The notes: generated from the letters alone by a model not told the origin. Numbered from the stretch's first letter, positions 29,941 through 63,740 are shown. The stretch: 64,000 nt of DNA from Acidobacteriota bacterium (GCA_965248695.1 CBDFKD010000002.1:5568001-5632000); one strand, 5' to 3'. Made by a program: numbers and translations.

Positions 29941-29942
29941 AG

Positions 29943-31273: not shown

Positions 31274-34168
31274 TCAGAAGGAGAGTCGCACACCCACCCG
31301 GAACTGCCTGCCGGGCAGGTATGAGCCCGAGTTCGTGGGCTGCCCGACGCGGGAGGTGCCGTCGCTGAAGGTCCGGTCGATTCGCCCATTCACGCCGGTC
31401 GGGGAGAAGGCGTTGAGCATGTTGAATCCGTCGAGCATCAACTCTACGCGGCCACTGTCCCCGTAATTGAAGGACTTCGAGAACCGCAGATCGAGCTGTT
31501 TATGGGCATCCCACCGCCTGCTGCGGACCGGCTCGATGGCCGTGGTGCTGTAGTCGGCGTTGCTCAATTGCGGGATCCCCCGGGATCCGTGCCTGATACT
31601 GAGGTTCCAGGGCCGACCCGACGACAGGTTGAAGTACATACCCGCGAGGATGCCTCCGGGCAGCCTGTAGTTGCTCAGCACCTTCCAGCTCCACGCCCTG
31701 CTGAAGCGCAACGGCCCCGACTCGGCGAAGGGGTGGCCAACGAAGTTCGGGTTGTCTGCTTGGTCAATGCCCCTACCCCAGACGCTCTGGCCGTCGCCGT
31801 TCTCCTTCGTTCCACGGTTGTTCTGGTAGGTGAGGGAGGTGCTGAAGTTGAGGCCGGAACCCGTTCGCCGTCGGTCCAGCGTAAGGGTCACGATGTCGTG
31901 CGTTCGTTTGTAGTAGTCGTCGTTGGAGTAGACGTTGTTGACCTGGCCGCTCTCTTTTTGGTAGAGCGTCTGGGTCAACGGGGTGTCGAGGAACCCGGGC
32001 ACTACCGGGCTGGTGAATTCGAAGGGCGTGAACACGTGGTCAATCGTGTCGTCGTAGTTGAAGAAGTTGCTGTCGTCCTTGTGGATATAGTCCAGGCCCG
32101 CGACCCAGTTGTCGACGAACTCAAACTCGATACCGACATTGAAGACGTCGGTATGCAGCGAGTGCAAGTCCTCCGGGATCGGGAACTGTGGCGCATTCAG
32201 CGAGTTCAGGTTTTCGGGTTGGAACGTCGCTGCCTGCAGCGCCAGCAGTTGGTCGGGGGTCGGGTTGTTCGGGTCGTAGTTGTCAGGGAAGAAACCGTCG
32301 GGAATCGCGAAGCCGTACGACGCGTAGGGTGCGAAATCGGGTGCGCGAAAAGCGCCGCCGCTGGCTCTCGAGACGTGTCCGATGGCTACCTTCTCGAAGT
32401 AGCGGCCCCAGCTGCCATGCGCGACCAGGCGGCCGTCGCCGGCCAGATCCCAGGTACCACCAAGGCGTGGCGCCAAGTTGTAGTACTTCGTGATCAGCCC
32501 CGATCCCGATGGAGCCCAGGGAGATCCGAACTCGGTCCGCTGACCGTCCCTCTGGTCGTAACCATTCGTCCGGTCGTAGCGCAGCCCGAGGTTGAGGGTG
32601 ATGTTGTCGGTCGGGCTGGCGTTGTCCTGGATGAACGCCGAGCTGCGAACGATGTTGGCCTCGAGGCCAACGTCGTAGATCGACCCGTATACGTACGATC
32701 CATAGGTAAACAGACCGCCTTGGCCGGTATAACCACTGATCCAGGCGGACCAGCTGTCGTTGTAGTCGATACCCACCTTGACGTCATGCGACGCACCCAG
32801 GAAGTTATCGACATACTGGGTCAGCGTTGCCGTCACCTCTGTCCGGGCGTTGGTTTCGTCCTCCAGGAAGCCTCGGGTGATCCTCCTGAACCCGCTGTAC
32901 CAGTAATCGGGTAGGTCGCAGCACACGAGCGGGAGGCGCAAGAAGGCGCCGCTGTAGCCTGCGAAGCGCAGATCGGTGAAGGTGTTGTCGCCGAGTTGGC
33001 TTTGCAAGCTGGCCAGCCAGGTCGTGGTGCGGTAGGTGGTGTCCATGGCGACGTGTAGCGGCGAGCCTGCTCGCAGATCCTTGTTGAACTCTCCGCCCGG
33101 ATCATGGTTGATCATGAAACCGAGCGTGTGGCGGTCGCTGAGCAGGAAATCCAGCCTGCCGTGCAAACGCCACCTGTCGTTGCGCTGCTGGGCATCTTCG
33201 ACGGCGATCCCACCGTCCAGCCAAACCTGGTCGGCGACGACGGAATCTTTCGTTTCCTGACGGGCGGCGCTGGCAAAGAAAAGCGCCTTGTTGCGCACGA
33301 TCGGGCCACCGACGGTGAGGGAAATGTCGCGGTCGTAGGAGAACTTTCCGCGCGCCTGATCCGGGTGGCGGTGGTTGTCGCTTCTCATACCGCCGTTCTG
33401 GAAGTAGAAGGAGCCCGTGCCATGAAACTCGTTGGTGCCCCCCTTGGTCACCATGTTGACCATGGCGCCCGTGAAGTTGCTGTACTCGGCACTAGCGCCG
33501 ACACCGACAATCTGGATCTCGGCGATCGCGTCTACGTTCGGGTTGACCCAGGTGCTGCCCCAGTCGCCCTCATTGACGTCAACGCCGTTGAGCCGGTAGC
33601 CATTGGTCGCGGCGCCCACGCGGTGCACGCTGGAGCCTTCGGAGTGGTTGCCACCGGCGCCGTAGGCACCCTTGTCGGCGAAGCCAGGGGCGAAGTTCGT
33701 GATCTCGGCGAACTCACGCGCCACCGGAATGTTGTCCAGCAGCTCCGCAGTGTAGCTCGTGTCGAGCGCTGACGACGTGATGTCGATCAACGGAGTTTCG
33801 GAGATCACGGTGACCGTCTCTGAGACCCCGGCCAGTTCCATCATTGCAGTGATGTTCGAGGTCGAGCCTACGTTCACCGGGACGTTATAGGCAACCGACT
33901 GGAACCCGGTCAGCGAGACCGTAACGAGGTACGTTCCCGGCCTGAGATTCCGAAACCGGAAAGTCCCACCGACGTCGGTTGTCTGGGTAAGAGATTCCTG
34001 GATGAGGTTGTCTCCCTCCACGGTGACGCTGACTCCGGGCAGCCCAGCACCATCGGCGTCTTGAACTTCTCCGGCGATGATTCCGGTAGCACGCGCGCCC
34101 TGCGCCATTACCTGCGCGGGGAGTACGAGGAGTAATGCGACGGTCAGAACCGCTAGCTTGGTGCGCAT
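31274..34168 (-). CDS. TonB-dependent outer-membrane receptor (Oar-like, N-terminal carboxypeptidase-regulatory domain)
   Basis: Signal peptide; GAGLPGVSVTV, VTKGGTNEFHG, TLNLGLRYD, NLAPRLG; ends VRLSF; GGAGGA RBS before ATG 34168. Confidence 0.92.
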   Translation of the reverse strand: MRTKLAVLTVALLLVLPAQVMAQGARATGIIAGEVQDADGAGLPGVSVTVEGDNLIQESLTQTTDVGGTFRFRNLRPGTYLVTVSLTGFQSVAYNVPVNVGSTSNITAMMELAGVSETVTVISETPLIDITSSALDTSYTAELLDNIPVAREFAEITNFAPGFADKGAYGAGGNHSEGSSVHRVGAATNGYRLNGVDVNEGDWGSTWVNPNVDAIAEIQIVGVGASAEYSNFTGAMVNMVTKGGTNEFHGTGSFYFQNGGMRSDNHRHPDQARGKFSYDRDISLTVGGPIVRNKALFFASAARQETKDSVVADQVWLDGGIAVEDAQQRNDRWRLHGRLDFLLSDRHTLGFMINHDPGGEFNKDLRAGSPLHVAMDTTYRTTTWLASLQSQLGDNTFTDLRFAGYSGAFLRLPLVCCDLPDYWYSGFRRITRGFLEDETNARTEVTATLTQYVDNFLGASHDVKVGIDYNDSWSAWISGYTGQGGLFTYGSYVYGSIYDVGLEANIVRSSAFIQDNASPTDNITLNLGLRYDRTNGYDQRDGQRTEFGSPWAPSGSGLITKYYNLAPRLGGTWDLAGDGRLVAHGSWGRYFEKVAIGHVSRASGGAFRAPDFAPYASYGFAIPDGFFPDNYDPNNPTPDQLLALQAATFQPENLNSLNAPQFPIPEDLHSLHTDVFNVGIEFEFVDNWVAGLDYIHKDDSNFFNYDDTIDHVFTPFEFTSPVVPGFLDTPLTQTLYQKESGQVNNVYSNDDYYKRTHDIVTLTLDRRRTGSGLNFSTSLTYQNNRGTKENGDGQSVWGRGIDQADNPNFVGHPFAESGPLRFSRAWSWKVLSNYRLPGGILAGMYFNLSSGRPWNLSIRHGSRGIPQLSNADYSTTAIEPVRSRRWDAHKQLDLRFSKSFNYGDSGRVELMLDGFNMLNAFSPTGVNGRIDRTFSDGTSRVGQPTNSGSYLPGRQFRVGVRLSF

Positions 34169-34496: not shown

Positions 34497-34505
34497 CACT
34501 TCTAT

Positions 34506-35765
34506 TGACCTGACCCCGCGGTTAGTACCATGTCTTATCTCAGTAACTCGGTGCTGACAAGAGGTTGTTGAGGCCGGCGAAGCGGAGCGCAGCCGGCTTC
34601 AACAACGTCGCTTCGGGTGCGGGCGGCCGATAGCTCAGCGAGCTGTGCGGTCGCATGCGGTTGTAGTGCTGACGCCATCTCTCGATCAGAACCTTTGCCT
34701 CCTTGAGCGTGTAGAAGATCTCTCCATCCAGCAGCTCGTCGCGTAGCTTGCCGTTGAAGCTCTCCACGTAACCGTTCTCCCACGGCGAGCCCGGCTCGAT
34801 GAACAGCGTCCCCACGCCCAACCGGCCCAGCCAGTCGCGAACCGCCTCGGCGGTGAACTCTGGTCCGTTATCCGACCGGATGTGCTCAGGTATGCCCCGG
34901 TGTACGAACAACCTCCCGAGCTGCTCCAGCACGTCCTCAGAGTTGAGCTTCCGTGCTACATGGATCGCCAGGCTTTCTCGTGTGTACTCATCGACGATCG
35001 TCAGCAGCCTCATAGCCCGACCGTCGTGCGTCCGGTGGTGCAGGAAGTCATACGCCCAGACATGATCCCGGTGCTGTGGGCGCAGCCGGATGCAGGAGCC
35101 ATCGCTCAGCCACAGCCGTGCTCGTTTGGGCTGTTTTCTCGGTACTTTCAGCCCTTCGCGCCGCCAGATACGCTGCACTCGTTTGTGGTTCACGGACCAG
35201 CCCTCCATGCGCAGCAACGCTGTCACCCTCCGATATCCGTAGCGCCCGTACTGTCGGGCTAAATCCACGATCCGCTCCGTCAAAATCTGCTCCTGTTGCG
35301 GCTCTCTTGGCACGTACCGGTGTGTCGTGCGTGGTTGTTTCAGTACCCGACACGCCCGCCTCTCCGAGACGCCCAGCCGCCCCCGTACATGTGCCACCGC
35401 CTCTCGCCGCCGAGCTGGGCTCAGAAGTTTCCCTCCGCCACTTCCTTCAGGATCGACAGGTCGAGTTCCTTTTCCGCCACCAGCCTCTTGAGCCGGGCAT
35501 TCTCCTTCTCCAGTTGCTTGAGCTTTCTGGCCTGGTTGAGCTTCAGTCCGCCGTACTCTCGCCGCCACCGGTAGTAGGTGTGCTCGGTGATTGCTAGCTT
35601 GCGGCAGGCATCCTTGACCGTCGCCCCTCGAGCCAGCTCCACCTCAGCCTCCCGGAGCTTGCGTACGATCTGCTCGGCGCTGTGCCTCTTACTCGGCATT
35701 CTGACCTCCCGTTCTTGACCCAGATCGTGAGATTACATCCGGATCCGTTTTCGGGGGTCAGGTCA
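34506..35765 (-). mobile_element. IS3-family insertion sequence (IS407-group-like), 1260 bp, apparently intact
   Basis: TG...CA ends with 12-bp identical IR TGACCTGACCCC; CTAT target duplication at 34502-34505 and 35766-35769; orfA and orfB present. Confidence 0.95.
34540..35699 (-). CDS. IS3 transposase OrfAB (orfA 35421-35699 plus orfB, joined by -1 frameshift)
   Basis: OrfA HTH (EQIVRKLRE, TYYRWR); OrfB DDE (WAYDF, SDNGPEF, ESFNGKLRDE); slippery G GGA AAC just before the orfA stop. Confidence 0.92.
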
Positions 35766-36043
35766 CTATCACCCGAGCCGGCCCTTCGCAGTTGAATTTG
35801 ACCTGCGTGAGCCTAGTCGCCGGTTTATTAGCACCGCGCCACGACCGCTGTCAATGAGCAGCAGCCGCACGAGGCGTGCCAATTCACACGCAGCGGATGC
35901 CACGAATTCCCTCGAGCTTCCTCACACTTCCGTGTCGGCTGTGGACTCGGATCGCGGCGTGGAGCAGGCAGCGGATCCATGCTTGAATCATCCGGGTGGC
36001 TCGCCGGTAGCAAGCCAACGACTCGCGTACCGAAGGAGGGAGC

Positions 36044-37696
36044 GTGAAAAGGCGTGACTTCATCAAGCTCGGAGCAGCTGTCGGCGCCATCGCAAGTGGG
36101 CCAACTACGCCATCTGCGGCCGCGGAACAGCGCCCAATGACCGGATCCGAGGCCCACCTGTCAAGGGGTGGCCGCGACCTGGCGATCGTCAACGCCAAGA
36201 TCGTCACGATGGAGGCAGGACAGCCGGAAGCCGAAGCTGCCCTTGTTCGTGATGGTCGCCTGATCCTGGTGGGCGATACGAACGAGGTGCGCTCGCAGGC
36301 CGGGCGCGTACCGATCTTCGACGCCGCTGGGCGGACGGTCGTACCAGGATTCATCGATGCACACACCCACTTCGAGGTGGCCTGCACCGCCGAGGCCTAC
36401 ATGGCGAAGGTTCACACGCCGCCGCTCGGCAGCCTTCGAGAGGTCATCAACGTCTTGCGCGCCAAGACAGCCGAGACACCAGCGGGTGAATGGGTGATCG
36501 CTCGCGGCTCGTTCGCGCTCGAGCGGCGCGTCAGCGAGGGCCGGTTGCTAGATCGGCACGATCTCGACGCCATCACCGAGAACCACCCCTTGATCGTGTT
36601 CTCCGGACGCCACGTGTCGATGCTGAACACGAAGGCGATCCACACGATGGGGCTCTGGGACGCGGACTCGACGCCGCCGCCTGGAGCGATCGTTCATCGC
36701 GACGCCGCCGGCATACCGACCGGGACCGCGACCGAGCTCTACTATCTGCTGCCCGAGTATTCGATCGAACAGGTCAAGGCCGCCATCCGCCAGCACGTCG
36801 GTCCGATGTTCGTCGCCAACGGTACGACCTCCGTCTATACCGTCCCCTACTCCACCAGCGACATCACCGCCGACCTGGAGCTACAAGCAGCCGGCGAGCT
36901 GCCCCTGCGGGTGCGCATGTACTACCACGTGCCCCACATGATCTCGCTGCAGGGTTTTCTAGATACCGGTCTGGTCTCCGGCTTCGGCGACGACATGTTT
37001 CGATTGGGCGGTGTAAAGCTCTTCGTCGACGGGCTCGGCGGCAATGGTCTCGGGGAGCCGCTCGAAGACTTCAAGTGGACCCAGGAGGAGCTCGACGAGA
37101 TCGTGTTCCAGGCTCACACGCGGGACCACCAGGTGCTGATGCACGTGATCACGCCGGGGGCCGTTCATCGAGCCGCGACCGCCGTGGAGAAAGCCCTGCA
37201 ACGCGATCCCCGACCCCATCGTCACCGGCTCGAGCACGGTGGCAGTGTCGAGACCGTCGAGGAGATGCGCTGGCTGCGCGATCTGGGATTGCGTCTGGTC
37301 GTCACCCCCAGCCGTGGCCGGCCGGGACGTCGGACCCCGCGCTACCGCACGCTGGTGGATGAGGGACTCGAGATCATCGGCATCACCGATACCACCGGCA
37401 CCGTGCCGGGGTCCTCCGCCCCAATGCCGAAGATCGCGGCGGCGATGGTATCGGTCGATGAGGGCGGCGGGGCGCCCGTCGGAGAGACGCTGACCTTCGA
37501 AGAGGCCCTGCGTCTGTACACGCTGTGGGCGGCACGCGGTGGTCGGGAAGAAGCCGACAAGGGCTCGATCGCCGTCGGCAAGCTAGGCGACTTTGCGGTG
37601 CTCTCCGATGACCCCCGAGACCTTGCCGGTGAGGACCTGTTCGGAGTCCAAGCAGAGGCGACGATCCTCGGCGGCGAGGTCGTCTTCGAGCGCTAG
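36044..37696 (+). CDS. Tat-exported metal-dependent amidohydrolase (Amidohydro_3 / YtcJ-NfdA-like)
   Basis: KRRDFIK signal; PGFIDAHTH, GGVKLFVDG, RHRLEH, KGSIAVGKLGDFAVL. Confidence 0.9.
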   Translation: MKRRDFIKLGAAVGAIASGPTTPSAAAEQRPMTGSEAHLSRGGRDLAIVNAKIVTMEAGQPEAEAALVRDGRLILVGDTNEVRSQAGRVPIFDAAGRTVVPGFIDAHTHFEVACTAEAYMAKVHTPPLGSLREVINVLRAKTAETPAGEWVIARGSFALERRVSEGRLLDRHDLDAITENHPLIVFSGRHVSMLNTKAIHTMGLWDADSTPPPGAIVHRDAAGIPTGTATELYYLLPEYSIEQVKAAIRQHVGPMFVANGTTSVYTVPYSTSDITADLELQAAGELPLRVRMYYHVPHMISLQGFLDTGLVSGFGDDMFRLGGVKLFVDGLGGNGLGEPLEDFKWTQEELDEIVFQAHTRDHQVLMHVITPGAVHRAATAVEKALQRDPRPHRHRLEHGGSVETVEEMRWLRDLGLRLVVTPSRGRPGRRTPRYRTLVDEGLEIIGITDTTGTVPGSSAPMPKIAAAMVSVDEGGGAPVGETLTFEEALRLYTLWAARGGREEADKGSIAVGKLGDFAVLSDDPRDLAGEDLFGVQAEATILGGEVVFER

Positions 37697-40224: not shown

Positions 40225-41478
40225 ATGTCGCCGCATGATCGACGCAAGTTCCTCAAGCTGACCGGGGCTGGTGCGCTGGCGTTGGCCGGCACCAAAGAAC
40301 TGCAGGCAGCGGCCGCCGCAGTGCAGACGTCCGGACCGGCGGCAGCATCAACCGCGGACGTGGCGGTCATCGGGGCGGGAGCGTTCGGCGGCTGGACGGC
40401 ACTTTACCTGCGCGAGATGGGGCACCGGGTCACGCTCATCGACGCGTACGGCGCCGGCAACGCGCGCGCGGCCTCCGGCGGGGAGAGCCGGCAGATCCGC
40501 ACCCAATACGGCGAGCGAGAGATCTACACCCGTTGGGTGGTGCAGGCATTCGACCGTTGGGAAGCGCGTCAGAGGGAGTGGGGTGGACGGCCGCTCTTCT
40601 ACCGCACCGGTCAGCTGACACTGGCGCGCGGATGGTCCGATTACCTGCGAGCCTCCAAGGTTGTGCTCGATCGACACGGGATCGATAACGAACTCGTGCC
40701 GGCCGACGAGCTGCCTCGGCGCTATCCGCAGTTCAACCACGAAGACGTCGAGTTCGGCTTCTACGTACCCAGCACCGGCGTCCTCATGGCGCGTCGTGCA
40801 TGCTTCGCGGTCGCGGGTGCCTTCGAGCGCGCCGGCGGCACGGTGGTCACCGCCAGGGCCAAGCCCGGTCGGCACGCCGGAGGCAAACTGCTGGAGCTCG
40901 AGCTATCGACCGGCGAGCCGGTGTCGGCCGACACGTTCGTCTTCGCGTGCGGGCCATGGCTGCCGAAGGTGTTTCCCTCCGTGATGAAGAACAAGCTCCA
41001 GACTCCGCGACGGATCACCTTCTGGTACGGCGTGCCGACCGACGACAACCGGTTCATCTACCCCAACTGTCCGACGTGGGACATACGGGGCGTCTACGGT
41101 TTCCCGAGCATCGAGGGCCGCGGCTGGAAGGTGGCACCCTATTTCGACAGCATCCCGTTCGATCCGGACACCGGCGAGCGGATCGTCACCGCCGAGGAGA
41201 TCGAGCAGGCGCGCCTGGTCGTGACCCGCGCCTTCCCTGCCCTCGCCGACCAGCCGGTGCTCGAGTCGCGAGTCTGCCAGTACGAGAACAGCATCGATAA
41301 CCACTTCATCGTCGATCGCCATCCAGAGATGGACAACGTATGGATCGTCGGCGGCGGCTCGGGCCACGGCTACAAGCACGGAATCATGATGGGCGACTAC
41401 GCGGCCCATCGTGTCGTCGGCGACGATCACAGCCCGGAGCTGGCCGACACGTTCAAGCTCAAGAAGGACACCTTCTGA
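40225..41478 (+). CDS. Tat-exported FAD-dependent oxidoreductase, monomeric sarcosine oxidase / DAO family
   Basis: DRRKFLK signal; IGAGAFG, SGGESRQIR, VCQY (position of the MSOX flavinylated Cys) and SGHGYK motifs. Confidence 0.87.
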   Translation: MSPHDRRKFLKLTGAGALALAGTKELQAAAAAVQTSGPAAASTADVAVIGAGAFGGWTALYLREMGHRVTLIDAYGAGNARAASGGESRQIRTQYGEREIYTRWVVQAFDRWEARQREWGGRPLFYRTGQLTLARGWSDYLRASKVVLDRHGIDNELVPADELPRRYPQFNHEDVEFGFYVPSTGVLMARRACFAVAGAFERAGGTVVTARAKPGRHAGGKLLELELSTGEPVSADTFVFACGPWLPKVFPSVMKNKLQTPRRITFWYGVPTDDNRFIYPNCPTWDIRGVYGFPSIEGRGWKVAPYFDSIPFDPDTGERIVTAEEIEQARLVVTRAFPALADQPVLESRVCQYENSIDNHFIVDRHPEMDNVWIVGGGSGHGYKHGIMMGDYAAHRVVGDDHSPELADTFKLKKDTF

Positions 41479-43002: not shown

Positions 43003-44289
43003 ATGGGCGACGATCGACACGGCGGGGATCGGACCGAACTACGACTACCTGGCGACGAGCCCACGAAGGTCCGAGCAGGCCTGGCGCTGGCGGGAGTGCT
43101 AGCGACGGTCCTGCTGGTAGCGGTTTCCGTGCTGAGCACGACCGCGACCGTCGACGCAGCGTCGCATCCGCCGATCCAGGCGCAGCAGGCCGCCGACGTT
43201 GCGACCCCCGACACCGAGTCGATGAGCAACGAGGAGCTCGCAACGCTGCTGGCGTCGGCGGAGCTAGGCCCCTACGCGCGTGAGGACGCTCTCGCCGACA
43301 CGTTCTCGATGGAGCGCGCCGCCAGCTTCCTCGATCGGGTTGCCGTGACCTGGGGTGAGAAGTACGGCTGCGTCACCTGCCATACGAACGGTTTGTATCT
43401 CACCGCGCCGCCCGAGATCTTCGGCGAGCGCCGTGCTTTCGAGATCACACACAGCCAGGCTGCCCGTTTCGTGCGCTCCTGGCGCGCCGACGACGTGCCT
43501 GAACACGATGCAAAACACCTACAGCAGACGTACTCCCCACACGTGGTGAACATCATTGGCACGTCGGCGTTCTTGGCCATCAACGAGGCCCAGTCGGGTG
43601 CAAGCGAGCTCAGCGACATCGCCGCGGAGGCGCTCGACCACGCCTGGTCGCTACAGGACGAAGGCGGCCATTGGGCCGATTGGACGGTAAACAACTGGCC
43701 ACCGTTCGAGTCCGATTTTCACTTCCCCGTCACGCTGATGGCGATCGCCACCGGCATGGCTCCGGGCGACTACCCCAGCACCGATGCTGCTGTACAGGGG
43801 ATGCGCAGGATTCGCGCCCACATCGCCGCCAATCCGCCCGAGTTCGCCCACAACCGCGGCATGCTGCTATGGGCCGGCAGTGTCAACGAGGGGCTGATCA
43901 GCGACGCCGATCGCCAACTTTGGATCGACGAGCTTCTCGGTCTGCAGCGTGACGACGGTGGTTGGGCTTCCGGCGGGCTGGGCGTGTGGCGCATGCGCAA
44001 GGGTCTTCCTTCCGATCCCCCGGTCACCGTCGAGAGCGACGGCTACGGCACCGGCTTCGTCATCTATGTCCTGCGACAGGCGGGCGTGCCGGCTTCGAAC
44101 GCGGCAATTCAGCGCGGTGTCGGCTGGTTGAAGACGAACCAGCGCGCCGGCGGGTACTGGTGGACCCAGTCCATACGCAACAGCTTCACAACCTCGAACT
44201 ACCTTACTCACGCCGGCACGACGTTCGCGCTCAAAGCGCTCGCGGCCACTGCGCTCGAAACGGGGGGCGTCGCCGATCTCGAGCGTTGA
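43003..44289 (+). CDS. exported prenyltransferase / squalene-cyclase-repeat protein with CxxCH (paralog 2)
   Basis: Tandem near-copy of 41594-42865 with the same motifs. Confidence 0.8.
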   Translation: MGDDRHGGDRTELRLPGDEPTKVRAGLALAGVLATVLLVAVSVLSTTATVDAASHPPIQAQQAADVATPDTESMSNEELATLLASAELGPYAREDALADTFSMERAASFLDRVAVTWGEKYGCVTCHTNGLYLTAPPEIFGERRAFEITHSQAARFVRSWRADDVPEHDAKHLQQTYSPHVVNIIGTSAFLAINEAQSGASELSDIAAEALDHAWSLQDEGGHWADWTVNNWPPFESDFHFPVTLMAIATGMAPGDYPSTDAAVQGMRRIRAHIAANPPEFAHNRGMLLWAGSVNEGLISDADRQLWIDELLGLQRDDGGWASGGLGVWRMRKGLPSDPPVTVESDGYGTGFVIYVLRQAGVPASNAAIQRGVGWLKTNQRAGGYWWTQSIRNSFTTSNYLTHAGTTFALKALAATALETGGVADLER

Positions 44290-44319: not shown

Positions 44320-45654
44320 ATGAGCAAGAAGGCGGAAGGAACGACGTCGACTCGGCGTGACTTGGCGCGCAGCGCCGTTGTCGCGTACACCGCCGCCGCC
44401 ATGGGGGTTCCCCGGAACCTGCTTGCCAGGGCGATCCGAGAGCCGGCCCAGATGGGCGGTGGGGGTTCGGGGCCCGCTGGGTTTCGAAGAAACACAGTAG
44501 ACGCCGAGTACTATACGGACGAAGCGCGCTACCTGTTCGATGAGCGCCTGGTGGCCGACCACTTCTGGCAAATGGTCGACCACGAGAGCAGGATCCCTGA
44601 TGCGGGCGACTTCTTCGTGTTCGAGTTCGGTCGCACCGAGAGCATCCTGATCGTGCGCGGGCGGGACAACGCAGTCCGCGGCTTCTACAACGTCTGCCGC
44701 CACCGCGGCTCGCGCCTGTGTCGTCACGATGCGGATCCGATCCCCGGGGATCCGCGCCTGTCAGTCAAGCAGCTCAGCCAGTCGGGCAGCTCACCGGTGT
44801 TCCGCTGCCCGTACCACGCCTGGACGTACGACACCGAAGGCAGCCTGATCTATGCCTACGGCATGCAGGAGGACTTCGACCCGGCCGACAACGGTCTGAT
44901 CCCCTGCCACCTTCGCGTGGCAGACGGCTTCATCTTCGTGAACCTGTCGCCCGAGCCGGAGGCGCCGGAGTTCGAGTCAGCGATCGAGCCCTTCCGCACC
45001 GATGTGGGCGGACCCCACGGCACCGCCCAGCTGAAGGTCGGCGAACGGGTCTACGTTCCGATGCACGCCAACTGGAAGCTGGCGCTGGAGAACTTCCTGG
45101 AGTGCTACCACTGCGGTCCGTCGCACGACTACCTCTGCCACGTGTACCCGGGCTCTGACCTCACAACCCCTTCGGAGAGACAAGGAAAGGGTGGCCTGCT
45201 CAACGGATTCGTCAGCGGCACGATGGACGGCAAGGCGGCGGCACCGTTGCTGCCCGCCTTCGAGGGCACCGATGCGAGGATGACGTCACGCACGTCGACC
45301 GAAACGGCCACCGGTTGGTCGACCGGCTACTGGCTCGGGTACGACGATTACGTCTTCGCGGTGAGGTTCACTCCTCGCGATATCAAGCTCACCGACGTGG
45401 AGTGCATCTGGCTGGTGCATCCGGATGCGAAGCGCGGCGTGGACTACGACGCCGAGAAGCTCAAGGAGGTGTGGCTCGTCACGCTGCTGGAGGACATCTG
45501 GTTGTGCGAGAACAACCACGACGGAATGCGCTCCGGCGCCTACCGACCCGGGCGCTACGCCACCCATGAGATCGGCAGCGTCTTGCCGGCCAATTTCATC
45601 CACTGGTACATGAACGCCGTGGCGGGTGACGTCGACCGCGTGATGCCGTACTAA
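44320..45654 (+). CDS. Rieske non-heme iron oxygenase alpha subunit with Tat-like signal (R1)
   Basis: STRRDLA + h-region; NVCRHRGS...CPYHAWTY; NWKLALENFLECYHCGPSH; EDIWLCE. Confidence 0.9.
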   Translation: MSKKAEGTTSTRRDLARSAVVAYTAAAMGVPRNLLARAIREPAQMGGGGSGPAGFRRNTVDAEYYTDEARYLFDERLVADHFWQMVDHESRIPDAGDFFVFEFGRTESILIVRGRDNAVRGFYNVCRHRGSRLCRHDADPIPGDPRLSVKQLSQSGSSPVFRCPYHAWTYDTEGSLIYAYGMQEDFDPADNGLIPCHLRVADGFIFVNLSPEPEAPEFESAIEPFRTDVGGPHGTAQLKVGERVYVPMHANWKLALENFLECYHCGPSHDYLCHVYPGSDLTTPSERQGKGGLLNGFVSGTMDGKAAAPLLPAFEGTDARMTSRTSTETATGWSTGYWLGYDDYVFAVRFTPRDIKLTDVECIWLVHPDAKRGVDYDAEKLKEVWLVTLLEDIWLCENNHDGMRSGAYRPGRYATHEIGSVLPANFIHWYMNAVAGDVDRVMPY

Positions 45655-49343: not shown

Positions 49344-51401
49344 ATGCGCCGAATAAGGCTCGCTAGCTCCTTTGTGGCAATCACGCTGTTGGCGGGGCTT
49401 TCGCACGCCGGCGGGCAGCTCTCCCAGACCGAGAGCCAGATCCTGGGCGCGCTGGACAAAGACAGGACCCTCGCCCTCACCCGCCGCCTCTCGGAAGAGC
49501 TGGTCAAGAACGACTCCGGTGGGGGCGCCGGCTCGGCCATCGCCGGCAGCGCCGATGAACGCCTCTTGGCCGGCTTCATCGAGGCCGAAATGACCCGGAT
49601 GGGTCTGGACGTGCGGCGCGAGAGCTTTCCCGTGCACGCCTACGACTACGGCAAAGTACTGCTGCGGGCAGCGGGCAGACAGCTGGCGGCGATTACCCAA
49701 CATTCCGGCGGTGGCACCTGGGGCACGGCCGAGCGCGTGCCGTACACCAAGGGCAACACGTCTGCTGGACGGGTCTTGCGAGCGGCCTTGCTCGATGCCG
49801 GAGAAGGCTGGGTTAATGACTACGCTGATCTGAGCGAGGTGCCCGGCAACGCCGTGCTCGTGCGCCGCGGAGACGACTGGCTCAACAGCCAGGTCGTGAT
49901 GGAGGCGGCGGAACAGGGAGCCTCCGCGATCTTGCTCTACGACTACGACAGCGGTGCGGAGGCCCCACAGGACTCGATCCAGCAGATGAGCATCGTCTAC
50001 CGCGACCCGATCCCGACCGTAACGATCAGCAACAGCGATGCGGCATGGCTCAAGGAGCGCCTCGCCGAGGGCGAGGTGATGATCGAGCTGGAAAACCGGG
50101 TCGACGTCGAATACGGCTCCTCAGAGAACGTCATCGGCATGATCCGGGGCCGGGAGTATCCAGACGAATGGATCATCGTCTCGGCGCACCACGACCGCTG
50201 GTGGCAGGGGGCCCAGGACGACAGCGTCGGGGTGGCCGTCATGCTGGAGTTGGCGCGCGTGATCTCGGAGGGCTACCGGCCGCGGCGCAGCTTCCTCTTC
50301 ATTGGCTTCGGCAGCGAAGAGGTCGGAGGGCTGTGGACCCAGTTCGACTGGCTGGCGGGCTCGCATGCGTTCATCCGGGCACACCCCGAGATCACCTCGC
50401 GGTTGGCCTATGCCTTCAACCTGGACATCGCTGGATGGACGGGGCGCGAGGGCCGCGTGAACGCCACCCCCGACCAGGTTGCCTTCCAACGCGAACTGCT
50501 GGCGGACCTCGGCCTCGACGAGCGGGTGACGGTGCGTGAGCACGTCAGTACCGGCGTCGATGCCTGGTCACTCGGAGGTGTTCGGGGCGGAGCGGTGGCA
50601 ACCCTGAGCTGGACGGGTGACGTCCCCTACAGCCGCTACTACCACACGCAGCACGATGTCTATCGAGCCGAGGACTATGCCAACCTGGAGCACGATCTGC
50701 GACACGGGGCACTCGGCGTGTTGCGGATGGACCAGGCTGTCGTCCTGCCCGTCGGCTTTTCGGAGATCGCCGGCTGGGTCGCCAAAGAGCTCGAGAGGCT
50801 CGAGCAGACGCTCTCGGGTCTCTCGGCGCCGACCGACCTGCTTCGCGACGCCGGACAGGCGGCAGAGCGCCTGCGCGTGCAGGGCGACAGGTTGACCGCG
50901 TCGTCTGCGTCTTTGGCGGATGGAGATCACGCGGCCATGGTCAACGCCCTCTTGATGAACACCCGGCATGATCTCGTTCCCTGGCTTCTGAACACGGAAG
51001 CGCGTCTGCGCGGGAGCGGGCACGCGGACGATGTCGTCGCCCTCCAGAGGGCGCGTATCGCTGCCGCGGATGGAGATGCCGAGGCTGCAGCTACTGCGCT
51101 CGAAGAAGTCAACACGATGCTGTGGGGCAAGCGGGTCTCGTCCGGGACCTATCGCGCCGAGAGGCTGCTCTCCTACGAGCCAACCGGTTGGATGTGGGAG
51201 TTCGACCAGCACCCGCGTCCGGTCAGCCCCGAGCTCTACACCATCTACTCGAAGCTCCGGGCAGGGCGCGGCGCCGATTCGGTCGCCGGGATCGGCAGGC
51301 TCGAGGCGCAGGCGGAGGGCTCGCTGCGGGAGGCCTTGTTCATCGTCAGCGGCAAGCTCAGGGACGCCGCGAGGGCGCTCGCCGACACTCCTCTACCGTA
51401 G
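49344..51401 (+). CDS. secreted M28 family metallopeptidase with PA domain
   Basis: Signal peptide; SAHHD, GAQDD, GSEE, NLD and YYHT zinc-ligand motifs. Confidence 0.87.
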   Translation: MRRIRLASSFVAITLLAGLSHAGGQLSQTESQILGALDKDRTLALTRRLSEELVKNDSGGGAGSAIAGSADERLLAGFIEAEMTRMGLDVRRESFPVHAYDYGKVLLRAAGRQLAAITQHSGGGTWGTAERVPYTKGNTSAGRVLRAALLDAGEGWVNDYADLSEVPGNAVLVRRGDDWLNSQVVMEAAEQGASAILLYDYDSGAEAPQDSIQQMSIVYRDPIPTVTISNSDAAWLKERLAEGEVMIELENRVDVEYGSSENVIGMIRGREYPDEWIIVSAHHDRWWQGAQDDSVGVAVMLELARVISEGYRPRRSFLFIGFGSEEVGGLWTQFDWLAGSHAFIRAHPEITSRLAYAFNLDIAGWTGREGRVNATPDQVAFQRELLADLGLDERVTVREHVSTGVDAWSLGGVRGGAVATLSWTGDVPYSRYYHTQHDVYRAEDYANLEHDLRHGALGVLRMDQAVVLPVGFSEIAGWVAKELERLEQTLSGLSAPTDLLRDAGQAAERLRVQGDRLTASSASLADGDHAAMVNALLMNTRHDLVPWLLNTEARLRGSGHADDVVALQRARIAAADGDAEAAATALEEVNTMLWGKRVSSGTYRAERLLSYEPTGWMWEFDQHPRPVSPELYTIYSKLRAGRGADSVAGIGRLEAQAEGSLREALFIVSGKLRDAARALADTPLP

Positions 51402-53005: not shown

Positions 53006-54328
53006 ATGAGCAAGAACGAGGAAGTCACCACGTCGACCCGGCGTGACCTGGCGCGCAGCGCAGTCGCTGCGTATACCGCCGCCGCCCTCGGGCTGCCGCG
53101 GAACCTGTTTGCCCGTGCGATTCCGGATACAGGCCAGATGGGGGGCGGAGAATCCGGCCCCGCGGGGTGGGTACGAGACACGATCGACGCCGAGTACTAC
53201 GTCGACGAAGCGCGCTGGCAGGTCGACGAGCGCCTGGTGGCCGACCACTTCTGGCAGATGGTCGACCACGTGAGCAGGATCCCCGAGCCGGGCGACTTCT
53301 TCGTGTTCGAGTTCGGTCGCTCCGAGTCCATCTTGATCGTGCGCGGGCGAGACAACGAAGTCCGCGGCTTCTACAACGTCTGCCGCCACCGCGGCTCGCG
53401 CCTGTGCCGTCACGATGCCGATCCGATTCCCGAGGACCCGCGCCTGTCGGTCAAGCAGCTGGGCCAGTCAGGTAGCTCGCCGGTGTTCCGCTGCCCGTAC
53501 CACGCCTGGACCTACGACACCGAGGGCAGCCTGATCTACGCCTACGGCATGCAGGACGACTTCGACCCGGCCGAAAACGGCCTGATCCCCTGCCACCTTC
53601 GTGTGGCCGAGGGCTTCATCTTCGTGAACCTGTCGCGCGAGGCGGAGCCGCCGGAGTTCGAGACGGCGATCGAGCCGTTCCGCGAGGTGGGTCAGTCACA
53701 CGGCATGGCCGACCTGAAGGTGGCCGAGCGCGTCTTCGTGCCGTGCCGGTCCAACTGGAAGCTGGCGCTCGAGAACTTCCTGGAGTGCTACCACTGTGGG
53801 CCGTCGCACGACTACCTGTGCCACGTGTTCCCGAACATCGATCTCTCGCTACCGGAATCTCAAAGACCTGGGAGCGGGATGCCCGCGAGCTTCGTCAGCG
53901 CCACGATGGACGGCAAGCCGGCGGCACCGTTGCTGCCCGCCTTCGAGCGCAGAACTGGCCGGAAGATGGGAAGCGACGTGGCGACGGGTTGGTCGACCGG
54001 TTACTGGTCTCCCAACGAGGACTACGTCTTTGCAGTCCGATTCACCCCCCGCGATGTGGACCTCACCGACGTGGAGTGCACCTGGCTCGTGCACCCGGAC
54101 GCGAAGCGCGGCGTGGACTACGACCCGGAGAGGCTGAAGGAAGTCTGGTACGTCACGCTGCTGGAGGACATCTGGTTGTGCGAGAACAACCACATCGGGA
54201 TCCGCTCAGGCGCCTACCGCCCCGGACGCTACGCCACCCACGAGATCGGCCGGATCCTGCCGGCCAACTTCATGCACTGGTACGTGAAGGCCGTGGCGGG
54301 TGACGTCGGCCGAGTGATGCCTTACTGA
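53006..54328 (+). CDS. Rieske non-heme iron oxygenase alpha subunit with Tat-like signal (R3)
   Basis: STRRDLA; same Rieske and mononuclear-Fe motifs as R1. Confidence 0.9.
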   Translation: MSKNEEVTTSTRRDLARSAVAAYTAAALGLPRNLFARAIPDTGQMGGGESGPAGWVRDTIDAEYYVDEARWQVDERLVADHFWQMVDHVSRIPEPGDFFVFEFGRSESILIVRGRDNEVRGFYNVCRHRGSRLCRHDADPIPEDPRLSVKQLGQSGSSPVFRCPYHAWTYDTEGSLIYAYGMQDDFDPAENGLIPCHLRVAEGFIFVNLSREAEPPEFETAIEPFREVGQSHGMADLKVAERVFVPCRSNWKLALENFLECYHCGPSHDYLCHVFPNIDLSLPESQRPGSGMPASFVSATMDGKPAAPLLPAFERRTGRKMGSDVATGWSTGYWSPNEDYVFAVRFTPRDVDLTDVECTWLVHPDAKRGVDYDPERLKEVWYVTLLEDIWLCENNHIGIRSGAYRPGRYATHEIGRILPANFMHWYVKAVAGDVGRVMPY

Positions 54329-54345
54329 CGAGCTTGGAGGATGGG

Positions 54346-55728
54346 ATGAGCAAGAAAGAGGAAGGCAACAAATCGACTCGGCGTGACTTGGCGCGTAGCG
54401 CTGTTGTCGGCTACACCGCCGCCGCCCTCGGGCTGCCAGCTCACCTGCTTGGCAGGGAAGTTGCGGAAGTGGGCCAGATGGCCAGCGGGGAATCGGGCGT
54501 CGCTGGGTCGCTCGGAGCCACGATTGACGCCGAGTACTACACGGACGCAGAGCGCTGGGAGTTCGATGAGCGCCTGGTGGCCGACCACTTCTGGCAAATG
54601 GTCGACCACGAGAGCAGGATCCCGAATACAGGCGACTTCTTCGTGTTCGAGTTCGGTCGCAGCGAGAGCATCCTGATCGTGCGCGGGCGGGACAACGAAG
54701 TCCGCGGCTTCTATAACGTGTGCCGCCACCGCGGCTCGCGCCTGTGTCGTCACGATGCGGATGCGATCCCCCAGGATCCACGCCTGTCGGTCAAGCAGCT
54801 CAGCCAGTCGGGCAGCTCGCCGGTGTTCCGCTGCCCCTACCACGCCTGGACGTACGACACCGAAGGCAGCCTGATCTATGCCTACGGCATGCAGGAGGAC
54901 TTCGACCCGGCGGACAACGGTTTGATCCCCTGCCACCTGCGCATCGCGGACGGCATGATCTTCGTGAACCTGTCGCGAGAGCCGGAACCGCCAGAGTTCG
55001 AGACAGCAGTCGAGCCCTTCCGCCGCGATGTGGGCAGACCCCACGGCACCGCCGACTTGAAGGTCGGCGAGCGGGTCTACGTTGCGATGCACGCCAACTG
55101 GAAGCTGGCGCTGGAGAACTTCCTGGAGTGCTACCACTGCGGTCCGTCGCACGACTACCTGTGCTACGTGTACCCGGGCTCCGACTTCACCACGGAGTCC
55201 GAGAAACAGGGGAAGGGTGGGCTGCTCAACGGATTCGTCACCGGCACGATGGACGGCAAGGCGGCGGCACCGTTGCTGCCCGCCTTTGAGGGCACCGACG
55301 CGAGGACAACGTCACGCACGTCGACCGAGACGACGTCGGGTTGGTCGACCGGCTACTGGCTCGGGTACGACGATCACGTCTTCACGGTGAGGTTCACCCC
55401 CCGTGACGTCGATCTCACCGACGTGGAGTGCACCTGGCTGGTGCATCCGGATGCGAAGCGCGGCGTCGATTACGACCCCGAGAGGCTAAAGGAAGTGTGG
55501 CTCGTCACGCTGCTGGAGGACATCTGGTTGTGCGAGAACAACCACGCCGGCATTCGCTCAGGCGCCTACCAGCCTGGCCGCTACGCCACTCATGAGCGCA
55601 GCCCGTCCAGATTCATACAGTGGTATATGGCCGCCGTCGCGGGTGACATCGGGCCGGCGTGGAACCCACGGCGGTATGAGCGTCCGACTGCCCGCCTCGA
55701 GGGTCCGGACGATGCACTCTTGACCTGA
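54346..55728 (+). CDS. Rieske non-heme iron oxygenase alpha subunit with Tat-like signal (R4)
   Basis: STRRDLA; same motifs as R1; distinct C-terminal tail. Confidence 0.9.
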   Translation: MSKKEEGNKSTRRDLARSAVVGYTAAALGLPAHLLGREVAEVGQMASGESGVAGSLGATIDAEYYTDAERWEFDERLVADHFWQMVDHESRIPNTGDFFVFEFGRSESILIVRGRDNEVRGFYNVCRHRGSRLCRHDADAIPQDPRLSVKQLSQSGSSPVFRCPYHAWTYDTEGSLIYAYGMQEDFDPADNGLIPCHLRIADGMIFVNLSREPEPPEFETAVEPFRRDVGRPHGTADLKVGERVYVAMHANWKLALENFLECYHCGPSHDYLCYVYPGSDFTTESEKQGKGGLLNGFVTGTMDGKAAAPLLPAFEGTDARTTSRTSTETTSGWSTGYWLGYDDHVFTVRFTPRDVDLTDVECTWLVHPDAKRGVDYDPERLKEVWLVTLLEDIWLCENNHAGIRSGAYQPGRYATHERSPSRFIQWYMAAVAGDIGPAWNPRRYERPTARLEGPDDALLT

Positions 55729-57725: not shown

Positions 57726-57751
57726 TCACAGCGGGCTCACCCCTGCGCAGG

Positions 57752-59754: not shown

Positions 59755-61566
59755 ATGCCGCGCAGATCATCGACCGAAACCGGGCTCCGTCTGTTGATCG
59801 CATTGCTGGCGAGCCTGAGCCTATCAGCGTGTCAGCCGTCAACGCAGGACGCGTCGCCACGCGATGGTGACGGTCCTGCCGATCTGGTCTTGCGCGGGGG
59901 TAAGTTCTTTACCCTCGACGAAGCCCAGGTCTGGGCGGAAGCCGTCGCGATCAAGGAGGGCAGGTTCGTCTACGTCGGCGACGACGCCGGTGCACAGAGC
60001 CTTGTCGGCCCCGATACCGATCGCCATGACCTCGGCGGCAGGCTGACACTTCCCGGCCTGGTGGATTCCCATACCCACCCGGGTCTGATGGGGCGGGAGT
60101 CGGCCGGGTACATCGCCGTCCCCGTGGGTGGTGGTCCGAGAGGGAGTCTGCCCCGGCGCGGGAGCAACGAGGAGGTGGTCGCCGCGGTGCAGGCGTATGC
60201 CCAGGCCAACCCGGACCTTCCCTGGATCGAGATGGGTAGCTGGTCCGGACATGTTTACGGCAAAGCGGGTCCACACAGGAGCGATCTGGATCGCGTCGTA
60301 GCGGATCGACCGGTGATGCTGGGAGACGACACCGGCCATAGCGTTTGGGTCAATTCCAAGGCGCTCGAAATGATGGGCGTCGACAGGAACACACCCGATC
60401 CGGTACCCGGTCTGTCGATGTTCGTACGGGATGCCGATGGGGAGCCTACCGGCTGGATCAAGGAGTTCGCCGCCTGGCCCTATGCGCGGCCCATTGCCGC
60501 TGCCGTTGACCGGGAGGCCAACAAGGAGGGCATCGTCACCTTCTTGGAGTACCTATCACGCCACGGCGTCACTTCGCTCTTGGACGCCGGCAACTTCGAC
60601 TACCACGATCTCACCTACTCGTTGCTTGCCGAGCTGGAGGCCGCCGGTCGCCTGCCGATTCGCTACGAGGCCGCATATCACATCATCTTGCCCGATCAGG
60701 TGCCCGATGCGATCGATGAGCTACTACGGTTGCGCCGCACCTACGGCGGCGAACGTCTGACGTTCAACACCATCAAGATTCACTTCGACGGCACGGACGA
60801 GCTTCGTACCGGCGCGGTGCTCGAACCGTTCAGCGATGATCCGGGCAACCGCGGCACGACTCTCCTCGACACCGAGGAGCTCAGTGACTTCATCGTGAAG
60901 CTTCACGACGCCCGCATCGATCTGCACCTTCACATCATGGCCGACCGGGGCGTGCGCATCGCGCTGGATGCCGTGGAAGCAGCGCGGGGATCGGTCGACG
61001 GCGAGCTCTATCCGCGCGTCACCATCTGCCATCTGGATATCATCGACACCGCGGACTACCCCCGTTTCAAACAGCTCGGTGTCATTGCCAACTACACGCC
61101 CCAATGGCACGGCCTGGGAGACCGGCTGCCGTTGACCGCGCTGACCCTTGGCGATCGCTTCGAGAGGATGTTGCTGGTGCAGCCGTTACTGGATGACGGC
61201 GCCGTCGTCACCTTCTCCAGCGACGTGACATCGCTCAGTGGCATGGAGCGAGCCAACCCGTATCTCGGGATGCAGATCGGCCACAACCGCCAGTACCATG
61301 AGCAAGGTGCGGATGCGCCGATAAGGCTGCCGATGACCGAACGGCTGAACCTGGAGGATCTGATCAAGGGATACACCTCGAGCGGCGCCTATCAGCTCCG
61401 CGTGGAGGACCAGCTCGGCTCGATCGAGGTGGGCAAGCTCGCCGATCTGGTGGTGCTCGATCGAAACCTGTTCGAGGTGGACCGCTACGAGATCCACACG
61501 GTGCGCCCCGAAGCGGTCTTCATGGAAGGCGAGATCATCAGCGGAAGCCCGGACGCCTGGAGATGA
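59755..61566 (+). CDS. amidohydrolase lipoprotein, Amidohydro_3 / YtcJ-like
   Basis: Lipobox LSAC; PGLVDSHTH, IKIHFDG, FSSD, GSIEVGKLADLVVLD. Confidence 0.9.
   Translation: MPRRSSTETGLRLLIALLASLSLSACQPSTQDASPRDGDGPADLVLRGGKFFTLDEAQVWAEAVAIKEGRFVYVGDDAGAQSLVGPDTDRHDLGGRLTLPGLVDSHTHPGLMGRESAGYIAVPVGGGPRGSLPRRGSNEEVVAAVQAYAQANPDLPWIEMGSWSGHVYGKAGPHRSDLDRVVADRPVMLGDDTGHSVWVNSKALEMMGVDRNTPDPVPGLSMFVRDADGEPTGWIKEFAAWPYARPIAAAVDREANKEGIVTFLEYLSRHGVTSLLDAGNFDYHDLTYSLLAELEAAGRLPIRYEAAYHIILPDQVPDAIDELLRLRRTYGGERLTFNTIKIHFDGTDELRTGAVLEPFSDDPGNRGTTLLDTEELSDFIVKLHDARIDLHLHIMADRGVRIALDAVEAARGSVDGELYPRVTICHLDIIDTADYPRFKQLGVIANYTPQWHGLGDRLPLTALTLGDRFERMLLVQPLLDDGAVVTFSSDVTSLSGMERANPYLGMQIGHNRQYHEQGADAPIRLPMTERLNLEDLIKGYTSSGAYQLRVEDQLGSIEVGKLADLVVLDRNLFEVDRYEIHTVRPEAVFMEGEIISGSPDAWR

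Positions 61567-63740: not shown

Follow-up and report, generated by a model that had tools for sequence, protein, structure and literature searches.

A stretch of 64,000 nucleotides (nt) from an Acidobacteriota bacterium (GCA_965248695.1 CBDFKD010000002.1:5568001-5632000), part of a chromosome of the soil or sediment type and called the window here, contains a region at 31,274–63,740 with 18 protein genes and one IS3 element. Rather than a fixed pathway, this region appears to be a neighborhood of envelope enzymes that cleave C-N bonds, in which the conserved unit is a module of two genes, one for a Rieske oxygenase (R) and one for an amine dehydrogenase of the SpdH family (S). We hold with middling confidence that this is the right description, that R and S are periplasmic, and that R is reduced there by a periplasmic protein. 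A preliminary description of the same DNA had proposed that the whole region is a single extracytoplasmic system for degrading N-alkyl compounds and amides, an interpretation that is partly supported by the results below.

The module occurs twice, as R1-S1 and as R4-S2, with genes for an M28 peptidase, R2 and R3 between the two copies:

44320..45654, plus strand: R1, Rieske non-haem-iron oxygenase alpha subunit with a twin-arginine translocation (Tat) signal, TRRDLARSAVVAYTAAAMGVP; Pfam Rieske 44.9 bits, Ring_hydroxyl_A 94.4 bits

45689..47623, plus strand: S1, predicted SpdH-family FAD/haem b amine dehydrogenase with a Tat signal, TRRDFVSGVSVALSGSLALPWA

49344..51401, plus strand: M28 metallopeptidase with a PA domain and a Sec-type N-terminus, MRRIRLASSFVAITLLAGLSHA; Peptidase_M28 87.4 bits, PA 29.3 bits

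51568..52953, plus strand: R2, Rieske oxygenase with a Tat signal, SRRDFAKSSVAAGAAAVTLP; 52–56% identical to R1, R3 and R4

53006..54328, plus strand: R3, Rieske oxygenase with a Tat signal

54346..55728, plus strand: R4, Rieske oxygenase with a Tat signal; R1 and R4 share 84% amino acid identity

55797..57725, plus strand: S2, second predicted SpdH-family flavocytochrome with a Tat signal; 81% amino acid identity to S1

All four R proteins match the Pfam families Rieske (45–51 bits, cut-off 20.3) and Ring_hydroxyl_A (88–105 bits, cut-off 24.9). The Rieske ligands C126/H128/C163/H166 and the iron-site residues H264/H269/D392 (R1 numbering) do not vary among the 36 sequences aligned, R1–R4 included; D392 would be the carboxylate of a 2-His-1-carboxylate iron site. 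The best NCBIfam model is GbcA (NF058607), with scores of 220.2, 236.2, 222.9 and 222.5 bits for R1–R4, all below the cut-off of 670. Among known structures, R1 is nearest to 3n0q (E 2e-52) and to Stc2 (3vca, E 3e-47), and it also matches 4qup and CntA (6y8j). The preliminary description had the Rieske enzyme hydroxylating an N-alkyl group; closeness to the N-dealkylating GbcA, 3n0q, Stc2 and CntA speaks for this, while the low GbcA scores stop short of assigning R to that enzyme. At present, homologs of R carry the annotation ‘aromatic ring-hydroxylating dioxygenase subunit alpha’.

The Tat signal sets these proteins apart from their relatives. A search with R of 1.84 billion representative sequences returned 247 proteins at E≤1e-30. 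Ten of the best 150 of these have a twin-arginine (RR) motif, and those ten are the top-scoring full-length matches. Scores then fall from 600–350 bits to ca. 270 bits at proteins of ca. 400–420 residues that align from their first 10–30 residues; these next relatives of the Tat-bearing proteins are at most ca. 42% identical and have no N-terminal extension. For a FastTree phylogeny of 126 catalytic cores, the sequences were trimmed of the signal region, and 41 rows that were too short or too long were dropped. All 24 rows with an RR motif, including R1–R4, fall with three N-truncated gene models into one set (27 of 126, support 100), so the Tat signal marks one clade. The Rieske proteins are a single, distinct clade with Tat signals among the N-dealkylating oxygenases of the GbcA/Stc2/CntA kind. 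A tblastn search of plasmids with R1 gave 946 records, all below 60% identity (31–36% for the 15 listed), and no Tat-type relative was found among them.

Within the clade the signal is well conserved. R12 and R13 are invariant in all 36 aligned Rieske sequences, and a hydrophobic h-region and an A-x-A-like c-region are kept alongside the RR. An RR motif lies upstream of the Rieske domain in 110 of 120 listed R1 homologs; the sequences of the ten others begin inside or past the signal, and one homolog, P0098, has an RR only through a second pair further in. For S1, 115 of 120 homologs have the motif, and the structure of SpdH from P. aeruginosa aligns with S1 from its own ISRRDFLNG. This conservation among relatives is convincing evidence for the predicted export signals, and stronger than that from the signal rule described below. 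Tat carries folded, cofactor-loaded proteins, and R and S themselves would be exported by this route.

S1 aligns with SpdH (PDB 7d9f–7d9j) over its full length (residues 5–625, E 1.4e-141) and keeps the residues aligned to His54 (EVAHQ) and His562 (NRWxHGY). The latter motif is found in 119 of 120 S homologs. Pfam recognizes the N-terminal dinucleotide fold alone in S1 and S2. According to PMC12564564, a haem b exposed on the SpdH surface has His54 and His562 as its axial ligands; this haem receives electrons from FAD during polyamine oxidation, reduces cytochrome c, dyes or an electrode, and has an oxidation onset of −0.14 V vs Ag/AgCl. From this likeness, S is predicted to be an FAD/haem b amine dehydrogenase of the SpdH type. 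JGI labels many S homologs spermidine dehydrogenase. The family is large: 8000 of 8000 scored candidates were significant, and members 62–82% identical occur in metagenome-assembled genomes (MAGs) of Acidobacteriota and gammaproteobacteria.

R and S are adjacent in several genomes. A genome scan with R gave at least 80 loci among at least 597 stretches, and these were followed up by tblastn with all 18 window proteins and by ORF and Pfam analysis. A regular expression flagged 13 loci as having an RR motif; in eight of them the arginines are in untranslated upstream frames and are not Tat signals. The Rieske gene has a real Tat signal in five of the 80 listed loci, all from Acidobacteriota MAGs:

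L001: 84–88% nucleotide identity to the window; R-S-M28-R2-R3 with the order kept; no DUF1552 gene

L003: R 59% and S 47% identical; S ca. 100 nt after R; SDR, TRAP transporter, S15 peptidase and aldehyde dehydrogenase genes adjoining

L002: more distant; R, a kinase-like gene, a HAD hydrolase gene, then a broken S; also a pyrroloquinoline quinone (PQQ)-cytochrome c protein

L004: more distant; R with glucan-synthesis genes to one side and an M43 peptidase gene to the other; a lipoprotein like the third amidohydrolase of the window (Amh3), 34% identical, 5 kb off

L005: more distant; a PQQ-like protein, R, and a monohaem cytochrome c

An S gene is found within 10 kb of R in three of the five Tat-type loci and in none of the 75 other listed loci; the hypergeometric chance of this is ca. 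1e-4, a figure inflated by relatedness (one phylum, one close relative). With five loci from a single phylum, one of them a near relative, R-S adjacency has been sampled independently perhaps two or three times. The gene set of the window as a whole is not kept: R-S-M28-R-R is common to the window and L001, R is found in L002–L005, S also in L002 and L003, and no other window family recurs consistently across the five loci. The co-occurrence expected in related MAGs is seen for R and S, together in L001–L003, and not consistently for the remaining families in these five loci.

The M28 counterpart in L001 is 88% identical and directly follows S; at 13337–13442 the DUF1552 gene is missing between them, which means an insertion in the window or a loss in L001. 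By tblastn, the DUF1552, cyclase-like, MSOX-like, amidohydrolase, PQQ and receptor genes are all absent from the 21 kb of L001. Next to the conserved block of L001 are, on one side, recA and genes for a LysM-SLT and a ComM-like protein, and on the other, two-component genes. In L002, the S gene (13970–15645) is split in two ORFs and a second SpdH-like N-terminus (MSKILRRDFINGALMVAG...) at 2–367 runs off the locus edge, which suggests several S paralogs and a frameshift or assembly error. L005 has a gene for a monohaem cytochrome c with a signal peptide (9960–10571) immediately 3’ of R, on the other strand; molybdopterin oxidoreductase and Nuo51-like genes come next (11096–15476).

For the substrate class, the electron route and the cooperation among the other genes we infer the following. 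R and S would fold and load their cofactors in the cytoplasm, move to the periplasm via Tat, and there cleave C-N bonds of amines with no need of prior import. Candidate substrates are N-alkylated, polyamine-like or peptide-derived amines. Rieske oxygenases use two electrons per turnover, and R would hydroxylate the carbon adjoining the nitrogen, using two electrons and O2. Enzymes of the SpdH type yield two electrons for each C-N bond they oxidize and present them at a surface haem; S would dehydrogenate a secondary amine to an imine, and two electrons would emerge at the exposed haem b. In the 19 ORFs of the region that were searched with Pfam and NCBIfam, there are no reductase or ferredoxin domains (Fer2, FAD_binding_6, NAD_binding_1, FNR-type, ferredoxin). 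Since neither NAD(P)H nor a reductase or ferredoxin gene is at hand, R would have to be reduced by a periplasmic redox protein. The leading candidate for this donor is S, and a cytochrome c or a PQQ quinohaemoprotein are alternatives. The preliminary description had a flavin dehydrogenase returning electrons; an SpdH-like S with both haem b histidines does adjoin R and could play this part. Longer, fused forms of R2 gave no clue to the donor: five of 8000 candidates were found at E≤0.001 with at most 39% identity to R2, and P0390 and P0391 look like read-through or frameshifted gene models. Such a negative is in itself weak evidence.

A stricter form of the proposal is that the periplasmic Rieske clade is altogether free of NAD(P)H, each member being reduced by the haem b of a neighboring SpdH-type protein or by a periplasmic cytochrome. 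We regard this as doubtful. If true, the oxidation of one C-N bond would pay for the oxygenation of another, and amines would be dealkylated stepwise outside the cytoplasm, in redox balance and with no reductase. The M28, amidohydrolase, acetamidase-family, MSOX-like and PQQ enzymes could trim amides and oxidize the released amines, alcohols or aldehydes, though their link to the R-S module is loose. The peptidase genes near R (M28 in the window and L001, S15 in L003, M43 in L004) and the amidohydrolases suggest a pool of peptide- or amide-linked amines. In L003, the aldehyde dehydrogenase and the TRAP transporter might serve in the uptake and oxidation of aldehyde or acid products.

The rest of the region consists of these features:

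31274..34168, minus strand: TonB-dependent-receptor-like outer membrane protein with an N-terminal CarboxypepD_reg domain and a Sec-type N-terminus, MRTKLAVLTVALLLVLPAQVMA

34503..35768, minus strand: IS3-family element (orfA 35421–35732, orfB 34540–35568), between the receptor and Amh1

36044..37696, plus strand: Amh1, Amidohydro_3 metal hydrolase with a Tat signal, KRRDFIKLGAAVGAIASG; Pfam Amidohydro_3 204 bits

37738..38790, minus strand: Fmd, acetamidase/formamidase-family protein with a Sec-type N-terminus, MRITLTVVGLLVCVGAVVATPG; Pfam FmdA_AmdA 104 bits

39102..40151, plus strand: Hyp, hypothetical protein predicted to be exported, N-terminus MNLNLRSSLPLGLCAMATAAVALSAATLWSTAAAQ

40225..41478, plus strand: MSOX/MTOX-like FAD amine oxidoreductase with a Tat signal, DRRKFLKLTGAGALALAGT; Pfam DAO 168.6 bits

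41594..42865, plus strand: Cyc1, prenyltransferase/squalene-oxidase-repeat-like protein; hydrophobic helix at the N-terminus, CxxCH motif (YGCVTCHTNG)

43003..44289, plus strand: Cyc2, paralog of Cyc1 (84% amino acid, 86% nucleotide identity)

47697..49034, minus strand: DUF1552 (HXXSHH) protein with a Tat signal, PRRTVLRGLGAAVALPLL; Pfam HXXSHH 307.7 bits

57752..59413, minus strand: Amh2, Amidohydro_3 hydrolase with a Tat signal, RRRDLLKIGAAAGVGATLPIGC; Amidohydro_3 208.9 bits; 54% identical to Amh1

59755..61566, plus strand: Amh3, Amidohydro_3 lipoprotein with the lipobox LSAC; Amidohydro_3 225 bits

61563..63740, plus strand: PQQ-dependent alcohol dehydrogenase of the quinohaemoprotein type, with a cytochrome c domain at the C-terminus; 4-nt overlap with Amh3

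The ORFs and their Pfam and NCBIfam families agree with the preliminary description, and the reading frames chosen agree with codon-position GC. Intergenic gaps are at most ca. 340 nt, none roomy enough for an extra gene.

All 18 genes outside the IS3 element encode export-type N-termini, as the preliminary description had stated: ten twin-arginine and eight Sec-, lipoprotein- or anchor-like. The same ten ORFs it had named (Amh1, MSOX-like, R1–R4, S1, S2, DUF1552 and Amh2) have, by regular expression, an RR motif with a directly adjoining, mildly hydrophobic stretch. Seven further matches to the expression, in IS3 orfB, Fmd, Hyp, Amh3 and PQQ and at second sites in R1 and S1, were rejected because the hydrophobic stretch is missing. 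The other eight genes encode a positive N-terminal end followed by a strongly hydrophobic stretch, with Amh3 a lipoprotein; the N-terminal helices of Cyc1, Cyc2 and the PQQ enzyme could be uncleaved anchors. Shine-Dalgarno-like motifs sit 5’ of the signal-giving start codons, with GGAGG before the ATGs of R1, R3 and R4 and GAGGAGAG upstream of the R2 ATG at 51568. None of the 18 proteins has more than one strongly hydrophobic 19-mer past the N-terminal region, save Fmd when read from its longest start. The earlier statement that the region has no inner-membrane transporter, regulator or cytoplasmic enzyme also stands: among the 18 genes there is no polytopic membrane protein, regulator or evidently cytoplasmic enzyme, and a reductase gene is absent as well.

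As controls for a home-made signal rule applied to the region, we took 29 ORFs: the two of the IS3 element plus 27 that lie in the window's first half. A first, looser version flagged 22 of the 29 controls and was discarded. With tightened thresholds, the rule flagged 18 of 18 region proteins vs 17 of 29 controls, which alone is weak evidence. The 17 flagged controls include eight polytopic membrane proteins and three proteins (an epimerase, SerC and a MobA-like protein) that are probably false positives.

The receptor matches OMP_b-brl_4 (93 bits), CarboxypepD_reg (61 bits) and TonB_dep_Rec_b-barrel (42.8 bits) in Pfam, and its ATG at 34168 has AGGAGG upstream. These matches cover the barrel; a Plug domain was not listed by Pfam at E≤0.01. 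In the preliminary description the substrate entered through this receptor, an idea that finds no support here: its gene is parted from the others by the IS3 element and is on the other strand. The IS3 element is complete-looking, with a match to the NCBIfam model transpos_IS3 (240.9 bits, cut-off 160), an HTH_Tnp_1 domain, and imperfect terminal inverted repeats of 15 nt (34503–34517 and 35754–35768). Inspection by eye showed no clear target-site duplication.

Amh1 and Amh2 score 19.1 and 18.2 bits against the TAT_signal model, under its cut-off of 22.7. Amh1 has a GTG start preceded by GGAGGGAG. The Tat signal of Amh2 ends in ...TLPIGC, a possible lipobox, so Amh2 could be a Tat-exported lipoprotein. 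The best PDB match of Amh1 is 3icj, an uncharacterized hydrolase (E 6e-11). The amidohydrolases had been likened to NfdA, a comparison we abandon because they match only uncharacterized metal hydrolases. Fmd belongs to the broad Pfam family only: its score against the NCBIfam formamidase FmdA (NF045496) is 61.5 bits against a cut-off of 500, so the formamidase of the preliminary description is not borne out beyond the family level. GAGAGGA lies upstream of its ATG at 38790. The MSOX-like protein is a member of the DAO family, its residue 44 aligns to residue 4 of MSOX 1zov, and it has a Cys aligned with chain position 315, which we take to be the residue that carries FAD in MSOX; its score of 207.9 bits against the N-methyl-L-tryptophan oxidase model (NF008425) is under the cut-off of 257.

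Hyp had no match in Pfam, NCBIfam or PDB. Its nearest Atlas clusters are uncharacterized and mainly from Acidobacteriota, and its start codon is uncertain, with no Shine-Dalgarno motif seen. Cyc1 has a weak match to SQHop_cyclase_C (19.6 bits, under the cut-off of 26.1), and its Atlas neighbors are squalene-cyclase-repeat clusters; an AlphaFold model from a two-row alignment had a mean pLDDT of 38.6 and was unusable. Cyc1 and Cyc2, just 5’ of R1-S1, have the CxxCH motif in common, ca. 70 residues past the N-terminal helix. It might bind haem c; Pfam recognizes no cytochrome domain in either protein. The DUF1552 gene is on the opposite strand between S1 and M28, with the usual partner families not nearby. 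The PQQ enzyme scores 613.9 bits against TIGR03075 (cut-off 480), 261 bits against Pfam PQQ and 39.7 bits against Cytochrome_CBB3 (cut-off 27). Its N-terminal hydrophobic helix would be a signal or an anchor and looks more anchor-like.

The first 16 kb of the window (1–16 kb) are ordinary housekeeping genes, including fmt, def, truA, cdsA, rseP, mdh, icd, serA, serC and gpmI. Next come a bc-type complex, a multihaem cytochrome of 967 residues, ctaA/ctaB, a sulfatase-TPR gene and a separate TPR gene. Between 17874 and 23417 are a Rieske/cytochrome b complex whose Rieske subunit is of the Tat type, the multihaem cytochrome c, in which FixO-like and Cytochrome_C domains are recognized, and ctaA/ctaB; these respiratory genes encode possible electron acceptors for periplasmic dehydrogenases. 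GC content is 0.61–0.67 throughout the window, with no sign of horizontal transfer in composition.

Recent duplications account for much of the region: its 18 genes collapse to ca. 12 families and ca. 8 probable transcription units. R1-S1 (44200–47700) and R4-S2 (54250–57800) are products of a recent duplication, with 88% nucleotide identity over the Rieske gene and 81% over S. The last 212 bases of the window (63789–64000) are an inverted copy, with 86.8% nucleotide identity, of 29732–29943, the 3’ end of the sulfatase-TPR gene at 27493–29940. The segment from 29.9 to 63.8 kb is therefore flanked by two convergent paralogous sulfatase-TPR genes, which could mark an inversion-prone or rearranged segment.

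The broader proposal, that all 32 kb make up a single co-regulated extracytoplasmic pathway with TonB entry, Rieske hydroxylation, PQQ or flavin oxidation that returns electrons, and a finish by amidohydrolases, can draw on an unbroken row of 18 genes for exported products and none for a cytoplasmic one, on tight same-strand groups (Hyp-MSOX-Cyc1-Cyc2-R1-S1, M28-R2-R3-R4-S2 and Amh3-PQQ), and on families that mostly work on C-N bonds or the products of their cleavage. Amidohydro_3 and PQQ-type neighbors also recur by Tat-Rieske genes, in L004, L002 and L005. We consider it quite unlikely. In the closest relative, L001, only R-S-M28-R-R is syntenic with the window and the flanks are unrelated, a result hard to square with one 32-kb system. 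In L003, R-S sits amid cytoplasmic and inner-membrane genes (SDR, aldehyde dehydrogenase, TRAP transporter). Within the window, the receptor is behind the IS3 element on the other strand, the run is broken by four single minus-strand genes, much of it is recent duplication, and its exported character extends leftward beyond the region to the TPR and sulfatase-TPR genes. In the opposite idea there is no functional link at all – a chance or architectural pile-up of secreted, tandem-duplicated paralogs in a genome rich in exported enzymes, with R and S adjacent by descent in one lineage. The reduction of 18 genes to ca. 12 families, the plasticity indicated by the IS3 element and the bracketing inverted sulfatase-TPR paralogs, the flanks not kept in L001, the origin of every R-S case among the listed loci in a single phylum, and the presence of R without S in L004 and L005 all argue for it. 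It does not explain well why R and S adjoin in L003 at 47–59% protein identity and recur in L002 with two genes between them, why, among the 80 listed loci, S is near R in Tat-type ones alone (three of five vs none of 75; ca. 1e-4, ignoring relatedness), or why the region encodes no other electron donor for the oxygenase. We judge it unlikely.

It is also conceivable that R is no periplasmic oxygenase: its N-terminus could be an uncleaved anchor or a remnant, with a generic reductase on the cytoplasmic face, or its activity could have been lost, leaving a redox or binding protein. The case for export rests on motifs, no exported Rieske oxygenase is known to have been characterized and none was found described in open-access papers or preprints, and a Rieske oxygenase often has the gene for its reductase at another place in the genome. 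Against it, the RR, the h-region and the A-x-A-like c-region are conserved across a clade whose nearest relatives without a Tat signal have none of the extension, no metal ligand varies, and the neighboring gene products are themselves predicted Tat or Sec substrates. This explanation seems to us very improbable.

Several points weigh against our own preference, a periplasmic Rieske–SpdH module in a loose neighborhood of envelope enzymes. Export is predicted by motif alone, and the false-positive rate of the signal rule is high. The N-dealkylase chemistry of R is an extrapolation, as its nearest characterized enzymes are ca. 30–40% identical. Typical oxygenase Rieske clusters have potentials that may lie below the onset of the SpdH haem b, which may then be too positive to reduce them. 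The S family is far larger and wider than the Tat-Rieske clade, so most S proteins work without R; conversely, L004 and L005 have R without S. The five Tat-type loci, among 80 listed, represent one phylum and include one close relative. Co-regulation has no support from scans of the window: between 34.0 and 53.9 kb, promoter-like sites numbered 0 against 2.4 expected and terminator-like sites 11 against 9.1, both uninformative, and Rfam had no match over 31–64 kb at gathering thresholds.

To our knowledge, all characterized Rieske oxygenases are cytoplasmic and fed by NAD(P)H reductases or ferredoxins. A conserved Tat clade without a reductase partner would need a different electron supply. 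If true, O2-dependent C-N cleavage would take place in the periplasm, ahead of uptake. This bears on organic-nitrogen mineralization by Acidobacteriota and on the annotation of genes now named as ring-hydroxylating dioxygenases, and it offers a possible source of reductase-independent oxygenase systems. In the full text of open-access papers and preprints, a Tat-exported Rieske oxygenase was not found described; in the available portions of PMC9296663 and bioRxiv 10.1101/2021.05.19.444901, the Tat signals are on laccases and an amidase, not on Rieske oxygenases. The interesting part is narrower than the region: an apparently periplasmic Rieske clade that repeatedly adjoins an exported FAD/haem b amine dehydrogenase. 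The wider 32 kb, a plastic neighborhood of secreted hydrolases and oxidoreductases, is less remarkable.

Like GbcA, Stc2 and CntA, the oxygenases of glycine betaine, stachydrine and carnitine, R has the Rieske and Ring_hydroxyl_A domains, no beta-subunit gene in the region, and all cluster and iron ligands, including the E-x2-H-x4-H iron motif (ECYHCGPSH). It differs from these three in its low identity to them (ca. 30–40%) and in an N-terminal extension of 40–90 residues bearing the conserved Tat signal. Unlike GbcA and CntA, it also has no gene for a GbcB/CntB-type reductase nearby, and its neighbors are periplasmic haem, flavin and PQQ proteins. S resembles SpdH of P. aeruginosa over its full length, with a Tat-type N-terminus, the FAD fold and both haem b histidines; here, it directly follows a Rieske gene and has been duplicated with it. 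The PQQ enzyme is like the type II quinohaemoprotein alcohol dehydrogenases, which are periplasmic, in scoring above the TIGR03075 cut-off and in having a Cytochrome_CBB3 domain with CxxCH. It differs in an N-terminus that looks more like an anchor than a cleaved signal, and any link to the Rieske module is tentative. The co-occurrence of a Rieske N-demethylase-like protein with an MSOX-like flavoenzyme recalls the cytoplasmic demethylation of betaine and sarcosine (GbcAB, DgcAB, SoxBDAG or MSOX). In contrast to that pathway, no formaldehyde-handling genes were seen in the region, the NAD(P)H-dependent partners are missing, all members have export signals, and amidohydrolases and a peptidase are present.

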